DNA from: a virus
Taxonomy: Duplodnaviria; Heunggongvirae; Uroviricota; Caudoviricetes
Reading direction: 5' to 3' (one strand)
DNA: 42,109 bases
Virus record (IMG/VR): IMGVR_UViG_2724679238_000007
Location: 1 to 42,109 of that record
The translations under genes and the position numbers were made by a program. This document shows, one piece after another, positions 1,848 to 30,535 of the stretch; the first letter of the stretch is position 1, and each line of letters opens with the position of its first letter. The notes beneath the pieces were generated by a model. The model was not told the DNA's origin and did not search any database. It saw only the letters and a program-made list of their open reading frames with translations.

Positions 1848-1874
1848 ATGCCCGGCATCAACCGGGCATTTTCC
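1848..1874. terminator. bidirectional intrinsic terminator between convergent baseplate and ant genes
   Basis: ATGCCCGG-catcaa-CCGGGCAT hairpin followed by TTTTCC on the plus strand and flanked by an A/T-rich stretch on the other side. Confidence 0.55.
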
Positions 1875-1875
1875 A

Positions 1876-2988
1876 TTATTCAGCCGCCACCGGTTTTAAC
1901 AAGCCAGCATCGAGCAGTTTACGCGTCAACCACTGCTGGCCTTTCCCCGTTAATTGAGGCGTCAGCCGTATCTGGTAGCCATCTTCATCATCCAGCACCA
2001 CTTCTTTCACTGTGAAATATCCGGCGTTTATGTACTGCTGAAACGGTACATTTTTACGTCCGCCGGACGCAATCAGGATGCCGTTCTCCCGTAACCAGGC
2101 AAACAGCGCATTTTGCTTAAGTCCAACAACCTTTGCAAAATTCCCAATCAGGATCCCCTTCGCCACTGATACCCGATCGGCAAAATCGACTTTGGGTGCT
2201 GCGGCCACCAGTTGTTGATTTAGCTGGTGGGCCTTCTGTTCCAGTAGCTGCTTTTGTTCAGCCAGCTCGGCAGCCAGACGCAGAGCTTCTGGAAGCGTCT
2301 GGGGGATTGCGATCGGTTGCTGTTCTTTTTGTCGGAAGTAGCTGTCTTCCAGTTTTTCAAAGAATGCCCATGCTTCATTTGTGTCCACGATCTTAGACAT
2401 GCGTGCAGCGCCGCGCTCTGTCCAGAGTGTAAGGCTTCTGGCGTTCTTACCAACAGAGTAACTTCCGGTTACTCTGTTCTTAAATTCTCTTAATTTTAAA
2501 CCAGTTAGAAGAAAGTAATGCTTACCTTCTTCAAAGCGGTCAAGGTTGCGAGACAAATTGTTGCGAATATTGGCTTCATCGACCCCATACCCTCTAGCAA
2601 GAGTTTCGGTTGTCACGACACGTACTCCCTGCCATTCCAGAACGGGAATTTCATCCGGCTGATTCTGAACAACCACCAGTTCCGATTCCTGAACTGAAGG
2701 TGCATAAATTTTTTCTGATTTAACGTTAGTTGCTTTCATTCTGTGTGCCTCCTTGCGTGCTTCGGCTGCGACGGTTGCATAATTCAGATGCCCCTGTTCG
2801 AGCAGGTATTCACGAATATCAGACAGCAGAATGCGGTGAACCGCGTTCTTGTCCTTTCTCCGGTAAAGTTGTTTGGTGATCATGAAGTAGTTGGCAATCA
2901 CGCCCGGTATATCCCTGGTACTGATACAGGCTGTGTGCTGTTCAATTGCCTCGATCATCTCTTCACGGGTGACTAATGACGTTCTCAT
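1876..2988 (-). CDS. ant: phage antirepressor Ant (N-terminal ORF6N/Bro-N-like plus C-terminal KilA-C/ANT domain), copy 1
   Basis: 370 aa; C-terminus (AKVVGLKQNALFAWLRENGIL...YINAGYFTVKEVV...TGKGQQWL) is the KilA-C/ANT signature; start overlaps the icd-like stop by 4 nt; lies downstream of a C1 operator and a c4-like region, as in the P1 immI layout. Confidence 0.8.
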   Translation of the reverse strand: MRTSLVTREEMIEAIEQHTACISTRDIPGVIANYFMITKQLYRRKDKNAVHRILLSDIREYLLEQGHLNYATVAAEARKEAHRMKATNVKSEKIYAPSVQESELVVVQNQPDEIPVLEWQGVRVVTTETLARGYGVDEANIRNNLSRNLDRFEEGKHYFLLTGLKLREFKNRVTGSYSVGKNARSLTLWTERGAARMSKIVDTNEAWAFFEKLEDSYFRQKEQQPIAIPQTLPEALRLAAELAEQKQLLEQKAHQLNQQLVAAAPKVDFADRVSVAKGILIGNFAKVVGLKQNALFAWLRENGILIASGGRKNVPFQQYINAGYFTVKEVVLDDEDGYQIRLTPQLTGKGQQWLTRKLLDAGLLKPVAAE

Positions 2989-3206
2989 AGCCCCTCCTGA
3001 GCAGAAGCGTTAACAGTGAGGCACCAGTAACTGAGAGAATTGCGCAAATCGGTAGAAAAGCGAGCAGAGAAAATACAGGGAGCATCCGGAAGCTGAGAAC
3101 GTGCCTCATCTTCTGTTGGTGCGATAACGAAGTGATAGTGACGTTTTTGACAAGAATAGAAACGCCAGATGAATTCTTGGCGTGCGCAAGGATTGGCATT
3201 AACCAT
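2985..3206 (-). CDS. icd: Icd-like small protein (host cell-division inhibitor family by position), copy 1
   Basis: 73 codons starting at the internal ATG (MVNANPCARQEF...); same length and position as P1 icd; translationally coupled to ant; RBS overlaps a c4 target octamer. The 139-aa extension in the ORF track is not supported by the paralogue. Confidence 0.6.
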   Translation of the reverse strand: MVNANPCARQEFIWRFYSCQKRHYHFVIAPTEDEARSQLPDAPCIFSARFSTDLRNSLSYWCLTVNASAQEGL

Positions 3207-3242
3207 AGTTACGGCCTCATTCGTAGGTTTAACAACCTGCGA

Positions 3243-3330
3243 CCCGCTGCTAAACGGGTGGCAGGACGTGACGGGGTTAGCAGACTGGCACGAATGAAAC
3301 CAGCAGGCCGAAGCCTCCCCACCACGCCCC
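3243..3330 (-). ncRNA. c4: c4-type antisense RNA, copy 1 (boundaries approximate)
   Basis: Non-coding stretch between the operator/promoter and icd. It contains CACGAATG (3289-3296) presented between a CTGG/CCAG stem, complementary to CATTCGTA present both upstream (3402-3409) and at the icd RBS (3218-3225). It also contains a UUCG hairpin and a 7-bp CTGCTAA/TTAGCAG stem. Confidence 0.45.
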
Positions 3331-3507
3331 ACCATAATTTGGGCGTAACGCGGTTTTACGGACATAAAAATACCGCAATATCGGAAATCTGCGGTTGTCC
3401 GCATTCGTATTCAGGCTGCTAAACCCGGTCGCAGAATTTGCTACGACGGCGGAACTATAAGCCTGAACAACAGGAAGATCAATAGTCTGGCGTTCGATGG
3501 TAGTTTA

Positions 3508-3540
3508 TTTGCTCTAATAAATCAAATTTATTAGAGCAAT
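3508..3540. promoter_or_regulatory. pair of abutting, inverted C1-repressor operators controlling the c4-icd-ant (copy 1) promoter
   Basis: 3524-3540 is a perfect reverse match to ATTGCTCTAATAAATTT; 3508-3524 is a 14/17 forward match. Confidence 0.75.
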
Positions 3541-6230: not shown

Positions 6231-6306
6231 TGGTGACCCCTACCGGACTTGAACCGGTGACCGTGCGATTATGAGTCGCCAGCTCTAACCACTGAGCTAA
6301 AGGGCC
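6231..6306 (-). tRNA. tRNA-Ile2 (anticodon CAU, ileX-like; Met not excluded from sequence alone)
   Basis: 76 nt cloverleaf read by hand: acceptor GGCCCTT/AGGGGTC, D-arm TAGCTCAGTGGTTAGAGC, anticodon loop CTCATAA, T-loop GGTTCAAGTCC, encoded CCA; very similar to E. coli ileX as recalled. Confidence 0.75.
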
Positions 6307-7721: not shown

Positions 7722-7797
7722 TGGCGATGGTGGGTGGATTCGAACCACCGACCAGTTAGTTAACAGCCAACTGCTCTAACCGCTGAGCTACACCATC
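7722..7797 (-). tRNA. tRNA-Asn (anticodon GUU)
   Basis: 76 nt: perfect acceptor GATGGTG/CACCATC, D-arm TAGCTCAGCGGTTAGAGC, anticodon arm GTTGG-CTGTTAA-CTAAC, T-arm GGTGG-TTCGAAT-CCACC, discriminator G plus CCA. Confidence 0.8.
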
Positions 7798-8459: not shown

Positions 8460-8487
8460 ATTACACTAATAAATTTATTAGAGCAAT
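8460..8487. promoter_or_regulatory. overlapping inverted pair of C1 operators (palindromic bipartite operator) at the 3' end of dmt
   Basis: 8471-8487 is a perfect reverse match to the C1 consensus; 8460-8476 is a 15/17 forward match; the two overlap on AAATTT; positioned to control leftward transcription into the tRNA-tci-ban-dbn region. Confidence 0.7.
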
Positions 8488-12769: not shown

Positions 12770-12786
12770 ATATTTATTAGAGCAAT
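12770..12786. promoter_or_regulatory. C1-repressor operator upstream of the hrdC-dmt operon
   Basis: ATATTTATTAGAGCAAT is a 16/17 reverse match to the C1 consensus. Confidence 0.65.
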
Positions 12787-23275: not shown

Positions 23276-24091
23276 ATGAGCAAAAACTTTTTTCAATCCG
23301 GGGCATTTTTGGGGAATGGCCTGTCCCGTTTCGCTTTAAACGCTGATCCGGTACAGCTGATGGAATCTGCCCGTGCAAGTGCCCAACCGCCAGTAGAACC
23401 GGAGATTAATAATAATCCGGAACCGGCGGCACAGATTAACGAGAATGTTCAATCTGACCCGGCCCCTGATCAAATCCTGGAGGGGAAAGACGGTAAAGAA
23501 TGGACTGTCGAACAGGCGCACCAGATGATTCTGGAAGCGGCAAATCGAAGTGCTATGCAGAATGCGTTGAGTAATGCGGCTGATGCCGTTTTCGCCTGGG
23601 CTGATAGCGGTGATCTGACTTTCGACTCTCTCGATGGTTTTGTTCAGGCTATCGCTGGCATCTCTGATGATGACGACTCCGAAGTTACAGAAGAACAGGA
23701 TGATGCCTATAACGAAGCATGGGCAAATGTTGCTGACTTCCTCGCAGCATGTGGTGTAGATGATGACCTGATCGAAGCATTGGCTGACGATGAAGACGAC
23801 GACGCAGCTGCTGATGTCGGTTCCGCTATTGCTGGTTTGGATAGCGATGACCGCGACGAACTGGAAGCTGCGTTTGTTGTTGCTGGCACTTCTGATGAAA
23901 TGCTAACCGAAGCATTTAAGAAAGTTGTTCGTAACGGTGAGATCAAACTTATCCGTAAACGCCTGCGTAAAAAACGTCTGACAGCGGCTCAAAAATCGGC
24001 GCTGAAAAAAGCGCGTCGTAAAGCCCAGACCGGTGCGGCAAAACTGGCCCGCAAAAAGTCAATGAAACTGCGCCGTAAGCGCCTCGGCTAA
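23276..24091 (+). CDS. hypothetical acidic protein with a strongly basic C-terminal tail
   Basis: 271 aa; Asp/Glu-rich middle (DDDDSEVTEEQDD..., DDEDDDAAADV...) then KRLRKKRL...RRKRLG; followed by a terminator. Confidence 0.5.
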   Translation: MSKNFFQSGAFLGNGLSRFALNADPVQLMESARASAQPPVEPEINNNPEPAAQINENVQSDPAPDQILEGKDGKEWTVEQAHQMILEAANRSAMQNALSNAADAVFAWADSGDLTFDSLDGFVQAIAGISDDDDSEVTEEQDDAYNEAWANVADFLAACGVDDDLIEALADDEDDDAAADVGSAIAGLDSDDRDELEAAFVVAGTSDEMLTEAFKKVVRNGEIKLIRKRLRKKRLTAAQKSALKKARRKAQTGAAKLARKKSMKLRRKRLG

Positions 24092-25997: not shown

Positions 25998-26184
25998 CAG
26001 TGCAGTAAAAAATTCCTTGCTCCTTGACAGAGGAGAGGATTAATCTAAGTACGCTAAGCATAGGTATGGCCCCGGTTAATGTTAAGCGTTGTGCGGGACG
26101 CATAATGTTTACTGGGGCTTTCTTCTATCTGCTTTTCGGGTAATACCTGAAGCTGATAGCCTCAAGCACACCGCAGCGGGTGTA

Positions 26185-27106: not shown

Positions 27107-27949
27107 TCATCCGCGAAAACCAGTTGGAATATAAAATTCCTTTTCTTTTCTTGTAGATAGGACCATATCCAGAGCTTCGTTTACCGTCATGCAATGCGGC
27201 AGATTATCGAAGTTTGATATCCCGCCCATATCAGGAGAACGCTTGTTCTTCAGGTAAGCATATTTCCGCGCTGCCGCCTCTACTTTCTGCTTGAACTCAT
27301 GTTTTTGAGAGCGTTTTTTGGATAACCGCAGATTGTCAGCCTTTGCTTTTGCCTCAGCGATCCATGAAGTCAATTTTTTGAGTCTGGTCGTTCCGGCATC
27401 GCCGGAAACTGATCTTTTTGTTTTTTTAATTTGTGACTTCTTATTCTTTATTGCCACGTCATCCTGACAGGGGGAGTGGGTATCATTTTGACATGGGGGT
27501 GTGGATAAAAAATCAAATAAAGCCAATGTCTTAGCGAGAACGGCTTTAACCTTGGTTGCGGCTGAAGAGATCTTTAATTTGCTTTCAATTAGCGCATTTT
27601 TGGCTTGTTGTGCGAAGGCCAAAAAGGATGGTGTAAACCGGTACAGGTTAGCGCGGCGTTCACGGTGATCGCCGATAACAATCTCTACCGACAGGATTCC
27701 TTTGTTTACAGCTTCACGGAATGCGCGAACGACGGTTGATTGGCTATAACCAGTTTCTGCCGCGATCATGCGGTGAGGCTTGTGAATGAAGTATTCACTG
27801 GTTGTTGCCGCGAGATTTGCACATTGCGACAGGATATGCCCGGCGCTACGGGATAGACCGGAGTGTGTTACAAAGCAGGCCAATTCATAGCCAGAAAAAG
27901 TAAAATCGCTCATCGTTATACAGCTCAGGAAAGTGACTTTAGCCAGCAT
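27107..27949 (-). CDS. repL: RepL-like lytic replication protein (candidate)
   Basis: 280 aa; HTH-like segment (MIAAETGYSQSTVVRAFREAVNKGIL) and basic C-terminal half; immediately downstream of kilA under a C1 operator, the arrangement of the P1 kilA-repL lytic replicon. Confidence 0.5.
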   Translation of the reverse strand: MLAKVTFLSCITMSDFTFSGYELACFVTHSGLSRSAGHILSQCANLAATTSEYFIHKPHRMIAAETGYSQSTVVRAFREAVNKGILSVEIVIGDHRERRANLYRFTPSFLAFAQQAKNALIESKLKISSAATKVKAVLAKTLALFDFLSTPPCQNDTHSPCQDDVAIKNKKSQIKKTKRSVSGDAGTTRLKKLTSWIAEAKAKADNLRLSKKRSQKHEFKQKVEAAARKYAYLKNKRSPDMGGISNFDNLPHCMTVNEALDMVLSTRKEKEFYIPTGFRG

Positions 27950-27978: not shown

Positions 27979-28779
27979 TTAGCGCGTTGCCGCGACAGGT
28001 ACCAGCACACCAGCATCAAGCAATCGCTTCATTAGCCACTGCTGACCTTTGCCGGTTATACGAGTCGTGAAAGAAATCCTGCTTCCATTGCTTGTATCGA
28101 TCACGGTTTCTTTGAGGGTGAAATACCCACGGGATATGTATTCTTGTTTTGGGACGTTCCTGCGTTCACCGGTTGCGATCAGAATTCCGTTATCACGCAA
28201 CCAGGTGAAGAGATAGTTTTGGCCCAGGCCGAGCACTTTGGCATAGTTGCCGATTAGAACCCCGCTGGCGGTAGCAACGCGTTCGGCGAATTCGACTTTA
28301 GGTGCATCCATCAGCATTTTTTGCTCCAGCCGTTGCTTTTGCTCTGCCAGGTCGGCAGCCAAACGGAGAGCTTCTGGGAGGCTCTGCGGAATAGCAGGTT
28401 GTAATCTTCCAGCTCGATAGTCGATAAATGTCTGGTTTACCTTCAGCCGAAACGCGGGAGAAATCCAACCAGCGTACTCCACTGCGAGCAATTCATGGGC
28501 AAAAGTGCCGCCGCCACGGCCTTCGAACGAAACTATGCAATTCTGCATAGTTTCTTTTTCAAGCTCTTCGATGAGCTGTTTAGCTGACAGCGTTCTTAGC
28601 CATTGAGCTGGCGCTTTATGGGCACCGAGTCCGCTCGCTCTGTGTAGAGCATTAAGGTTGTAACGGCCAGCGCGGTCGGTCGTAATTTCAACACCACAAA
28701 TAACAGGCAGAGTGGTTGAAGGATCGACATTTTGATGAAGGTTTGATATATTCATATCCGCATTGAATGTTTGTTGCAT
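27979..28779 (-). CDS. kilA: KilA protein (KilA-N plus KilA-C domains)
   Basis: 266 aa; N-terminal KilA-N-like region (GRYNLNALHRASG...AQWLR) and C-terminal KilA-C region shared with both Ant copies. Confidence 0.75.
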   Translation of the reverse strand: MQQTFNADMNISNLHQNVDPSTTLPVICGVEITTDRAGRYNLNALHRASGLGAHKAPAQWLRTLSAKQLIEELEKETMQNCIVSFEGRGGGTFAHELLAVEYAGWISPAFRLKVNQTFIDYRAGRLQPAIPQSLPEALRLAADLAEQKQRLEQKMLMDAPKVEFAERVATASGVLIGNYAKVLGLGQNYLFTWLRDNGILIATGERRNVPKQEYISRGYFTLKETVIDTSNGSRISFTTRITGKGQQWLMKRLLDAGVLVPVAATR

Positions 28780-28848: not shown

Positions 28849-28865
28849 AAATTTATTAGAGCAAA
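28849..28865. promoter_or_regulatory. C1-repressor operator upstream of kilA-repL
   Basis: AAATTTATTAGAGCAAA is a 16/17 reverse match to the C1 consensus. Confidence 0.7.
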
Positions 28866-28942: not shown

Positions 28943-29986
28943 TTAACCTATTGCTACTGGTTTTAACAAACCAGCATCAAGTAGCTTGCGAGTTAACCAC
29001 TGCTGGCCTTTACCCGTTAATTGGGGCGTCAGCCGTATCTGGTAGCCATTTTCATCATCCAGCACCACTTCTTTCACCGTGAAATACCCGGCGTTAATGT
29101 ACTGCTGGCGCGGTACGTTTTTGCGCGCACCAAAAGCCATGAGAATGCCGTTCTGGCGCAACCATGAGAAAAGGGCGTTTTGCTTAAGTCCAACGACCTT
29201 TGCAAAGTTCCCGATCAGGATTCCATTAGCCGCTGATACCCGGTCGGCAAAATCGACTTTAGGGGCTGCGGCCACCAGCTGTTGTTCCAACTGCATTTTC
29301 TGTTCTGCCAACTCGGCAGCCAGGCGTAGAGCGTCTGGTAATGTTTGGGGGATCGATGGGGCAGGGGAGTTTGCCTGCTGCAATTCTTCCAGTTTGTCGA
29401 TCAGCGAACGGCGGACTGCTTTTGACTCGCGCGCGGCGACTCGCAGGGCTTGTTTGTAGGTCATGGTTATGACAACCATAGGCGTACCGCCACCTGGCGG
29501 CACGGTTGCACTTTTTGTGTAACCGTCCTCACCTTCTAATTCGTCGAGTATTTTTTTGATGAATTTGTTGTTCCGAACCTCTGGTTCCCCACATAACTTA
29601 CGCGCTTCATTGACCATCTTTAACAGCGTCTGGCTGTCGATTGTGTCTCCAGTGTTGGAGATAACATTCACAGCTGGTGATGGCGTAGCTGAAGCAACAG
29701 GTGCTGGTTTTTCAACATTCAAATTATTACCGGTCATTCTGCGCGCCTCCTTTCTCATTTCTGCTGCCACTGTTGCGTAACGTAGACGTCCTTGTTCAAT
29801 CAAATAATCCCTGATCTCGGCTATCAGTAGCTTGTTGATCACAGCCTTATCTGTTCGGGTATAAAAACGTCTGGTTATCATGAAATAGTTGGCAATTGCG
29901 CCGGGGATCTCCCGTGTCGGCATACAGGTTGTATGCAGGGCGATCGCTTCGGCTATTTCATTACGGGTGACGAGAGGTTTTTTCAT
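28943..29986 (-). CDS. ant: phage antirepressor Ant, copy 2
   Basis: 347 aa; N- and C-termini near-identical to copy 1 with a divergent middle; overlaps the icd-like stop by 4 nt. Confidence 0.8.
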   Translation of the reverse strand: MKKPLVTRNEIAEAIALHTTCMPTREIPGAIANYFMITRRFYTRTDKAVINKLLIAEIRDYLIEQGRLRYATVAAEMRKEARRMTGNNLNVEKPAPVASATPSPAVNVISNTGDTIDSQTLLKMVNEARKLCGEPEVRNNKFIKKILDELEGEDGYTKSATVPPGGGTPMVVITMTYKQALRVAARESKAVRRSLIDKLEELQQANSPAPSIPQTLPDALRLAAELAEQKMQLEQQLVAAAPKVDFADRVSAANGILIGNFAKVVGLKQNALFSWLRQNGILMAFGARKNVPRQQYINAGYFTVKEVVLDDENGYQIRLTPQLTGKGQQWLTRKLLDAGLLKPVAIG

Positions 29987-30204
29987 AAATCCCCCTGAAC
30001 GTCGGCAGAGAAGGGGAGGTTCCAGTAACTAAGTGAATTGCGCGAGTTAGTTGAAAAACGGGCAGTAAAAATGCAGGGGCCATCAGGCAATTGAGAGCGT
30101 GCTTCGTCTTCTGTTGCTGCGATGACGAAGTGATAGTGGTGTTTTTTACAGGAATAGAAACGCCAGATGAATTCTTGGCGTGCGCAAGGATTGGCATTAA
30201 CCAT
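29983..30204 (-). CDS. icd: Icd-like small protein, copy 2
   Basis: 73 aa (MVNANPCARQEFIWRFYSCKKHHYHF...), paralogue of 2985..3206. Confidence 0.6.
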   Translation of the reverse strand: MVNANPCARQEFIWRFYSCKKHHYHFVIAATEDEARSQLPDGPCIFTARFSTNSRNSLSYWNLPFSADVQGDL

Positions 30205-30240
30205 AGTTACGGCCTCACAATCAGGTTTAACAACCTGCTA

Positions 30241-30328
30241 CCCGCTGCTAAACAGGTGGCAGGACGTGACGGGGTTAGCAGACTGGCGATTGTGAAACCA
30301 GCAGGCCGAAGCCTCCCCATCACGCCCC
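30241..30328 (-). ncRNA. c4: c4-type antisense RNA, copy 2, with an altered recognition octamer (boundaries approximate)
   Basis: Same architecture as copy 1, but the loop octamer is CGATTGTG (30287-30294), complementary to CACAATCA at 30216-30223 (icd RBS) and 30400-30407. Confidence 0.45.
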
Positions 30329-30518
30329 ACCATAATTTGGGCGTAACGCGGTTTTACGGACACAAAAATACCGCAATATCGGATATCTGCGGCTGTCCGC
30401 ACAATCATTCAGGCTGCTAAACCCGGTCGCAGAATTTGCTACGACGGCGAAACTATAAGCCTGAACGATTAAAAGGTCAATATGATGCGAAAAGATAGCA
30501 TTCGCGACTTAAAAATAC

Positions 30519-30535
30519 AAATTTATTAGAGCAGA
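30519..30535. promoter_or_regulatory. C1-repressor operator upstream of c4-icd-ant copy 2
   Basis: AAATTTATTAGAGCAGA is a 15/17 reverse match to the C1 consensus. Confidence 0.65.

Follow-up and report, generated by a model that had tools for sequence, protein, structure and literature searches.

The locus described here raises the question of whether a single phage-plasmid can hold two c4 antisense RNAs, each with a specificity of its own. Experiments on the specificity of the P1/P7 c4 antisense RNA were reportedly carried out by Citron and Schuster in 1990, and the textbook picture of P1/P7 c4 heteroimmunity rests on two alleles. The c4 RNA is processed by RNase P, and the polarity of icd-ant expression is Rho-dependent. 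In the model established for P1 and P7, c4 pairs through its a' and b' segments with a2 and b2, of which b2 covers the icd ribosome-binding site, and ant expression needs icd translation (PMC8198154; Weinberg 2010 supplementary text). The GenBank annotations of P1 and P7 document the same a'/b' model. A sequence-only reading of the window, by which we mean the whole stretch of 42,109 nucleotides that was analysed (IMG/VR virus record IMGVR_UViG_2724679238_000007), had proposed that two c4 copies differ by a joint change of an antisense octamer and its two targets, in the manner of P1 and P7, and that the replicon has two independent antisense immunity specificities. The window indeed contains two complete c4-icd-ant operons, both on the minus strand. 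We consider it probable that they employ the established P1/P7 mechanism with different b sites, and we infer for them that each c4 fully silences only its own operon and that recognition uses a two-part address.

Two c4-icd-ant operons in a P1-like phage-plasmid

Its sequence identifies the window as a P1-like phage-plasmid of the kind seen in Escherichia albertii and E. coli; its nearest relatives are E. albertii plasmids, with 98% identity to pEA32_2 across the first 9 kb. Matches to the C1 operator are found seven times in the window, compared to 0.27 expected by chance (Table 1). Two tRNA genes are located 5' of ban, in the tciA/tRNA/ban operon region, at 6234-6306 and 7725-7797 on the minus strand (61.7 and 71.7 bits). 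A match to the sok antitoxin RNA (Rfam RF01794; 62.5 bits, gathering score 59) at 26003-26171 on the minus strand, just past repL, suggests a hok/sok-type type I toxin-antitoxin locus, and hokD is annotated at the equivalent position in a relative.

Copy 2 is the canonical immI locus with a P7 address. It equals P7 at all six sites (a TTAGCAG/CTGCTAA, b GATTGTG/CACAATC), it has the order C1 operator, c4, icd, ant1/2, kilA and repL with 98.3% identity to P7, and it, not copy 1, holds the immI position, with sim/upf50 on one side and kilA-repL on the other. Copy 1 is self-contained, spans about 1.7 kb and comprises a C1 operator, a promoter, a1b1, c4, a2/b2, icd, a mosaic ant and a terminator-like hairpin; its place is between dbn (3' of ban) and baseplate gene 5, which runs convergently. 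It is an insertion: dbn and gene 5 are neighbours in P1 and P7 and in each of the 25 phage records that matched, none of which has the module there. Among 1224 matching plasmid records, only 9 include 80% or more of the first 9 kb.

Table 1. Positions in the window of the two c4-icd-ant operons, their recognition sites and the further C1 operator matches.
Feature	Position	Strand	Remarks
Copy 1 C1 operator	3508..3540	-	perfect consensus ATTGCTCTAATAAATTT at 3540..3524; overlapping inverted half-site at 3508-3524 with 3 mismatches
Copy 1 promoter	3454..3482	-	TTGATC-17 nt-TATAGT; positional equivalent of P1 promoter P1c4 (former P51b)
Copy 1 c4-a1b1 motif	3408..3460	-	RF03163; a1 TTAGCAG at 3422..3416
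Copy 1 b1 target	3402..3408	-	ACGAATG
Copy 1 c4 antisense RNA	3257..3333	-	77 nt; homology to annotated P1 c4
Copy 1 b'	3296..3290	-	CATTCGT; hairpin loop
Copy 1 a'	3283..3277	-	CTGCTAA; unpaired junction
Copy 1 a2 target	3247..3253	-	TTAGCAG
Copy 1 b2 target	3215..3224	-	ACGAATG at 3224..3218, overlapping icd Shine-Dalgarno GAGG at 3218..3215
Copy 1 icd homologue	2985..3206	-	73 aa, intact; 79% identity to copy 2 Icd
Copy 1 mosaic antirepressor AntX	1876..2988	-	370 aa
Copy 1 closing hairpin	1848..1869	.	bidirectional, terminator-like; faces convergent gene 5
Copy 2 C1 operator	30519..30535	-	Oc4/Op51 equivalent; 2 mismatches
Copy 2 c4-a1b1 motif	30406..30458	-	RF03163; a1 TTAGCAG at 30420..30414
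Copy 2 b1 target	30400..30406	-	GATTGTG; P7 type
Copy 2 c4 antisense RNA	30255..30331	-	P7 type
Copy 2 b'	30294..30288	-	CACAATC
Copy 2 a'	30281..30275	-	CTGCTAA
Copy 2 a2 target	30245..30251	-	TTAGCAG
Copy 2 b2 target	30213..30222	-	GATTGTG at 30222..30216, overlapping icd Shine-Dalgarno GAGG
Copy 2 icd and ant1/ant2	28943..30204	-	icd 30204..29983; ant1/ant2 29986..28943
kilA	28779..27979	-	3' of copy 2 ant
repL	27949..27107	-	3' of kilA
C1 operator matches, overlapping inverted pair	8460-8487		ban-operon Op72-like
C1 operator match, single	12770-12786		
C1 operator match, single	28849-28865		kilA-repL operator

The operator of copy 1 looks bivalent and palindromic, which suggests tighter control by C1 than that of copy 2 with its single operator. 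In both copies the ant start is overlapped by the icd stop. AntX combines an Ant1-like N-terminus with an ORF6N central domain and a KilAC C-terminus; the ORF6N domain (PF10543, E = 2.5e-18) replaces the central part of Ant1 at residues ~116-200, and the internal AAGGAGG..ATG at the Ant2 start position is retained. AntX may have a target different from that of canonical Ant1/Ant2, and we assume that it binds C1 despite an ORF6N centre unlike Ant1. Apart from the immI position, copy 1 shows every feature by which a P1/P7 c4-icd-ant operon is recognised at the sequence level. Since it is located elsewhere, it would be an operon that works like immI at a different locus.

The comparison of the window with itself returned two short diverged repeats and nothing more, so that a dimeric or cointegrate state and any recent duplication can be set aside. 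We also rejected a simple duplication as the origin of the copies, as copy 1 is an ectopic paralogue with 79% Icd identity and a mosaic Ant. It is hardly credible that the two copies stem from faulty assembly or from the fusion of two phage-plasmids into a cointegrate: at least one public record, NZ_CP016549.1, does hold a 39.6-kb duplication that doubles immI, but in the window copy 1 is flanked by single-copy backbone genes, and the same architecture recurs in complete circular plasmids that are independent of one another, have a normal size and were sequenced in different studies.

The two copies differ at b and agree at a

Both c4 RNAs matched the Rfam C4 family (RF01695) over its full length, model positions 1-87, at 3339..3254 for copy 1 (71.1 bits) and at 30337..30252 for copy 2 (69.6 bits; gathering score 45). 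The c4-a1b1 motif (RF03163) was found at 3460..3408 (56.2 bits) and 30458..30406 (54.6 bits), respectively, with a threshold of 46.7. The six octamers singled out by the sequence-only reading are present in the window exactly where it had placed them and correspond to what the P1/P7 c4 model calls b1, b' and b2. Their proposed pairing held for the 7-nt cores, which are perfect Watson-Crick complements within each copy (7/7), while the eighth base forms a G.U wobble in both copies. The a' and b' segments as a whole are 7/7 complementary to a1 and b1 and also to a2 and b2, in both copies. ACGAATG-AGG in copy 1 and GATTGTG-AGG in copy 2 are located 8 nt 5' of the icd ATG, the final G of b2 falls in the GAGG Shine-Dalgarno sequence of either copy, and the P1 annotation has b2 at the same position as in copy 1.

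RNAfold placed b' within a 9-nt hairpin loop and left CUGCUAA (a') unpaired in both copies, with folding energies of −37.9 and −40.7 kcal/mol (z −3.1 and −4.0). The minimum free energy and centroid structures were the same in both c4 copies, and the Rfam alignment agrees on the placement of b' and a'. Because b' lies in a loop in each copy, as had been supposed, the predicted structures give no ground for refuting the octamer claim.

At the b sites the two copies differ in 5 of 7 nucleotides, and the copy 1 pair ACGAATG/CATTCGT is also unlike the b sequence of P1 (GTTAGTG). The second recognition site is common to both copies (a1/a2 TTAGCAG, a' CTGCTAA). From the a1b1 motif through the icd ATG, differences were counted at 15 of 21 b positions versus 8 of 246 positions elsewhere (Fisher p = 1.7e-14), which bears out the earlier remark that the flanking sequence is almost unchanged. 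Outside b, the copies share ~97% identity over the RNA control region (3207-3453 versus 30205-30451), compared to 80% for icd, 63% for the 5' part of ant and 65% for the operator region. This conservation of the RNA region between diverged flanks suggests strong constraint, cassette exchange, or both.

The same data bear on the idea that copy 1 is a decaying, functionless relic of recombination with another P1-like element. Its ectopic position, its absence from most relatives and an overall identity to copy 2 of only ~79% would fit such a relic. However, both ORFs of copy 1 are intact, its three a and three b sites are perfectly matched, its operator, promoter and terminator are all present, the RNA control region is conserved outside b against flanks of 63-80%, and modules of the copy 1 type are intact in many independent plasmids. 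We therefore regard decay as very improbable and consider copy 1 as a second operon of the P1/P7 kind.

The b sites covary across the c4 family

IMG/VR was scanned with a pattern in which the loop was left free and then with type-specific patterns, which gave ~150 c4 loci. In the alignment columns, a1/a'/a2 and b1/b'/b2 were mutually complementary in 122 of 123 full loci. The exception, a locus from a Bdellovibrionales MAG (L010) without clear a/b complementarity, possibly results from misalignment or mis-binning. The c4-core pattern matched contigs binned to distant taxa in two cases, this MAG and an Achromobacter MAG (L009). Three a types (including TTAGCAG and TTGACAG) and ~11 b types were found in at least 17 combinations. 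For 44 non-redundant loci, all 616 a/b pair cells were Watson-Crick in both pairing schemes (a1.a' with b1.b', and a'.a2 with b'.b2), with 157 double-sided compensatory changes, no one-sided change and no mismatch; sliding the partner by 1-3 columns as a control left 28-51% paired. The three-way covariation noticed in the window consequently holds in the family as well, where the b positions are the most variable and the most strictly covarying columns.

A pattern with an 8-N loop found 7 loci, comprising a sister c4 subfamily and unrelated outliers. The sister subfamily, found in IMG/VR and in a metagenome contig (L005, L007, L008, L011), has an 8-nt variable loop CCTAGAAC with b = GTTCTAG and a = TTAGCAG. 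Its backbone differs, and it has no Icd or Ant similarity to the window.

These data also bear on how the two copies came to differ. The idea that the sites changed together between the copies was not borne out, as both are alleles of a pre-existing pool, copy 2 being of the P7 type. The copy 1 address (TTAGCAG, ACGAATG) is the canonical immI address in at least five other elements (L045, L056, L064, L098, L119), its b type is also present in D6-like elements, and its loop occurs in 73 PLSDB records. This address is thus an allele that already existed and not a product of divergence between copy 1 and copy 2. Copy 1 matches the P7 immunity type at a alone. For this lineage, we consider cassette import a likelier origin than compensatory mutation. 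Canonical immI, accessory modules and D6-like elements are three diverged backbones on which the same b types are found again, which suggests that the RNA control cassette has been moved by recombination.

Replicons with several c4 modules

In PLSDB, the c4 region was found at 747 places in 635 records. The E. albertii plasmid p06-3542, which has 100% identity to the 251-nt control region of copy 1, contains five C4 RNAs with five addresses at dbn-adjacent, immI, lysozyme/ssb-proximal, mat-proximal and c1-adjacent sites. Its c1-adjacent module has a diverged C4 that follows an isrK-like element (a = TTGAGAC, b = GCAAAAGG). Four c4 modules are present in pE2865-1 and at least three in the D6-like plasmid pAPEC201603.

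The fifth module was located by c1/pacAB (ash-icd-ant) in relatives, at 23454-23664 on the minus strand of L131 and at 46322-46511 on the plus strand of L161. Its diverged C4 scores 75 and 75.9 bits and has complementary a/b sites of its own, with an isrK-like RNA (RF01394, 59 and 60.8 bits) in place of the a1b1 motif. The likeness to the IsrK sRNA locus lies in this isrK-like element, which precedes the diverged C4 on its 5' side; no Rfam match to isrK was obtained in the window. TnpB-family (RNA-guided endonuclease) genes are found beside or near c4-icd-ant modules of p06-3542 (L130 28932-30140; L131 11866-12996 and 26502-27713), and one of them replaces the upf50 genes and adjoins the canonical c4 promoter region.

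Identical (a,b) addresses were found in 0 of 29 within-replicon pairs, compared to 3.6-3.8 expected by permutation (P = 0.02 and 0.007), where the 11 multi-module replicons are partly related and the null ignores differences in type frequency between canonical and accessory loci; we consider these statistics suggestive of address uniqueness within replicons. The same a is shared by 12 of the 29 pairs and the same b by 3. Modules with the same b differed at a in all four cases (pE2865-1, pAPEC201603, IMG/VR contig 2703718869_000013 and isolate genome 2534681832). Duplicates of the same b in one PLSDB record were rare and numbered 0/73 for CATTCGT, 3/254 for CACAATC and 3/57 for CATGTAC. As such pairs exist, a rule that no b may occur twice in a replicon fails, and uniqueness of the (a,b) combination survives. 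The identical-address pair of NZ_CP016549.1 was discarded as a counter-example, as it lies in the direct duplication of this record (1-39615 and 86456-126046, 99.5-99.7% identity; L164-L166). The duplication represents a partial multimer or was introduced during assembly, and it is a warning for copy-number surveys. Two other records, with a duplicated P7-type b' and without a P1-type a' copy, could be true exceptions to address uniqueness.

On this basis we tentatively propose, as a possibility that may well fall short in one or other of its parts, that P1-like and D6-like phage-plasmids use c4 addresses in a combinatorial AND-logic, with up to five modules that are all distinct, stacked in an arms race and carried on a cassette of 250 nt that recombines between backbones. 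In such an arms race, each added c4 would silence one more class of incoming antirepressor, and each added ant would escape one more class of resident c4.

A different role also comes into consideration. Copy 1 might chiefly be an addiction module that stabilises the plasmid in the manner of a type I toxin-antitoxin system, with Icd and Ant held back by a labile antisense RNA, and not an immunity device. The modules are compact, self-contained and present at several unrelated sites, and some consist of c4 and icd without ant (L001 and modules of pAPEC201603). Distinct addresses would prevent one antidote from covering the loss of another module, and Icd is a documented FtsZ-targeting division inhibitor (PMC11897509). 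Against this role, copy 1 retains a consensus C1 operator and a full-length Ant with a nested start, which tie it to the lysis-lysogeny circuit; moreover, phd-doc is already present in relatives and there is a hok/sok-like locus as well. We judge a mainly plasmid-stabilising function to be distinctly unlikely and favour a role of copy 1 in immunity.

Mechanism and pairing specificity

In the mechanism that we propose for the window, each operon would give rise to a minus-strand transcript that is controlled through a C1 operator and comprises the decoys a1/b1, the 77-nt c4, a2/b2, icd and ant. The unpaired a' and the b' hairpin loop of c4 would pair with a2 and b2. Owing to the overlap of b2 with the icd Shine-Dalgarno sequence, c4 bound to b2 would block icd translation, and ant would be switched off through translational coupling and polarity. 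Since no duplex other than the cognate b'.b2 covers the ribosome-binding site, each c4 would fully silence its own operon only, and recognition would amount to a two-part address in which both a and b are needed. Since a' and a2 are common to both copies, some cross-binding is to be expected.

The predicted site-level duplex energies agree with this scheme at b. The cognate b'.b2 duplex reaches −10.9 kcal/mol in copy 1 and −11.5 kcal/mol in copy 2, compared to −3.0 and −2.9 kcal/mol for the cross pairs, and to this extent they support the claim that each c4 is specific for its own mRNA. At a the claim does not carry, as the a'.a2 duplex amounts to −7.9 kcal/mol in every combination, and two independent specificities in the form originally proposed go further than the shared a site allows. 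RNAcofold of whole molecules gave −0.6 to −2.7 kcal/mol for all pairs, loop-to-linear kissing contacts being beyond cofolding unless c4 is unfolded.

The shared a site is also the basis for an alternative in which the two modules are not independent: a'/a2 would suffice for cross-repression and b would only tune its strength, leaving one effective immunity specificity. The a' and a1/a2 sequences are the same in both copies, the a'.a2 duplex provides ~40% of the total cognate pairing energy, and the cross b pairs still form ~4 bp beside the Shine-Dalgarno sequence. However, a2 is located ~25 nt 5' of the Shine-Dalgarno sequence without covering it, so that b2 alone does so. In addition, none of the 12 within-replicon pairs that share a also shares b and modules with the same b always differ at a, which fits a requirement for both sites, and the b columns stand out in the family for their variability and strict covariation. 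A single effective specificity is in our view unlikely, though it deserves serious consideration. Because both copies share a, we word the preferred reading with restraint and regard the independence of the two c4 specificities as plausible. If it holds, extra modules with distinct addresses would allow the resident c4 pool to silence the ant of more incoming P1-like phages, and would equip the phage with an antirepressor that escapes silencing by a resident prophage whose c4 differs.

Relation to known systems and implications

With the immI operons of P1 and P7, the operons of the window share the RNA family and its fold, the a'/b' segments, the a1b1 and a2b2 targets, the position of b2 over the icd Shine-Dalgarno sequence, the icd-ant coupling and the C1 operator. 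P1 and P7 have one operon each and differ from one another at a and b, whereas the window has two operons that differ at b alone; the parallel that had been drawn with P1 versus P7 consequently extends to b and not to a. Copy 1 further differs from the P1/P7 operon in that it lies outside immI, lacks kilA-repL downstream, has an operator of palindromic build and encodes an Ant whose middle domain is ORF6N.

In the plasmid antisense systems ColE1 RNA I/RNA II and R1 CopA/CopT, specificity likewise resides in few loop nucleotides, and matched changes create new compatible types. These RNAs are cis-encoded, fully complementary to their targets and control replication, whereas c4 is arranged in tandem with its targets, makes two short separated contacts and controls an antirepressor. 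Antirepressor modules also mediate crosstalk between the co-resident Gifsy prophages (Lemire 2011, PMC3121763), but these antirepressors are controlled by LexA and are not known to use an address code of the c4 type. Additional icd-ant / c4-icd homologues have been mentioned in passing for pSvP1 (Venturini 2019, PMC6906374) and for the D6-like pYU39_89 (PMC6799933), in papers that contain no analysis of c4 target specificity, covariation or within-replicon address differences. A literature search that covered few subscription papers found nothing on the c4 specificity of extra modules, an a-by-b code or within-replicon uniqueness, and multi-module combinatorial addressing appears to be undescribed so far. 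While the mechanism itself is known, the apparent novelty lies in the stacking, within a single replicon, of several such operons whose distinct two-part addresses come from a large, perfectly covarying pool.

Our data suggest that P1/P7 heteroimmunity is one corner of a larger natural library of antisense keys and locks, of which a single replicon can carry several. If the addresses are orthogonal, this would explain coexistence, exclusion and induction among closely related phage-plasmids, elements of importance for the carriage of resistance genes, and the outcome of superinfection would become predictable from sequence alone. In that case the family would also offer synthetic biology a ready set of compact, orthogonal RNA repressors of translation.
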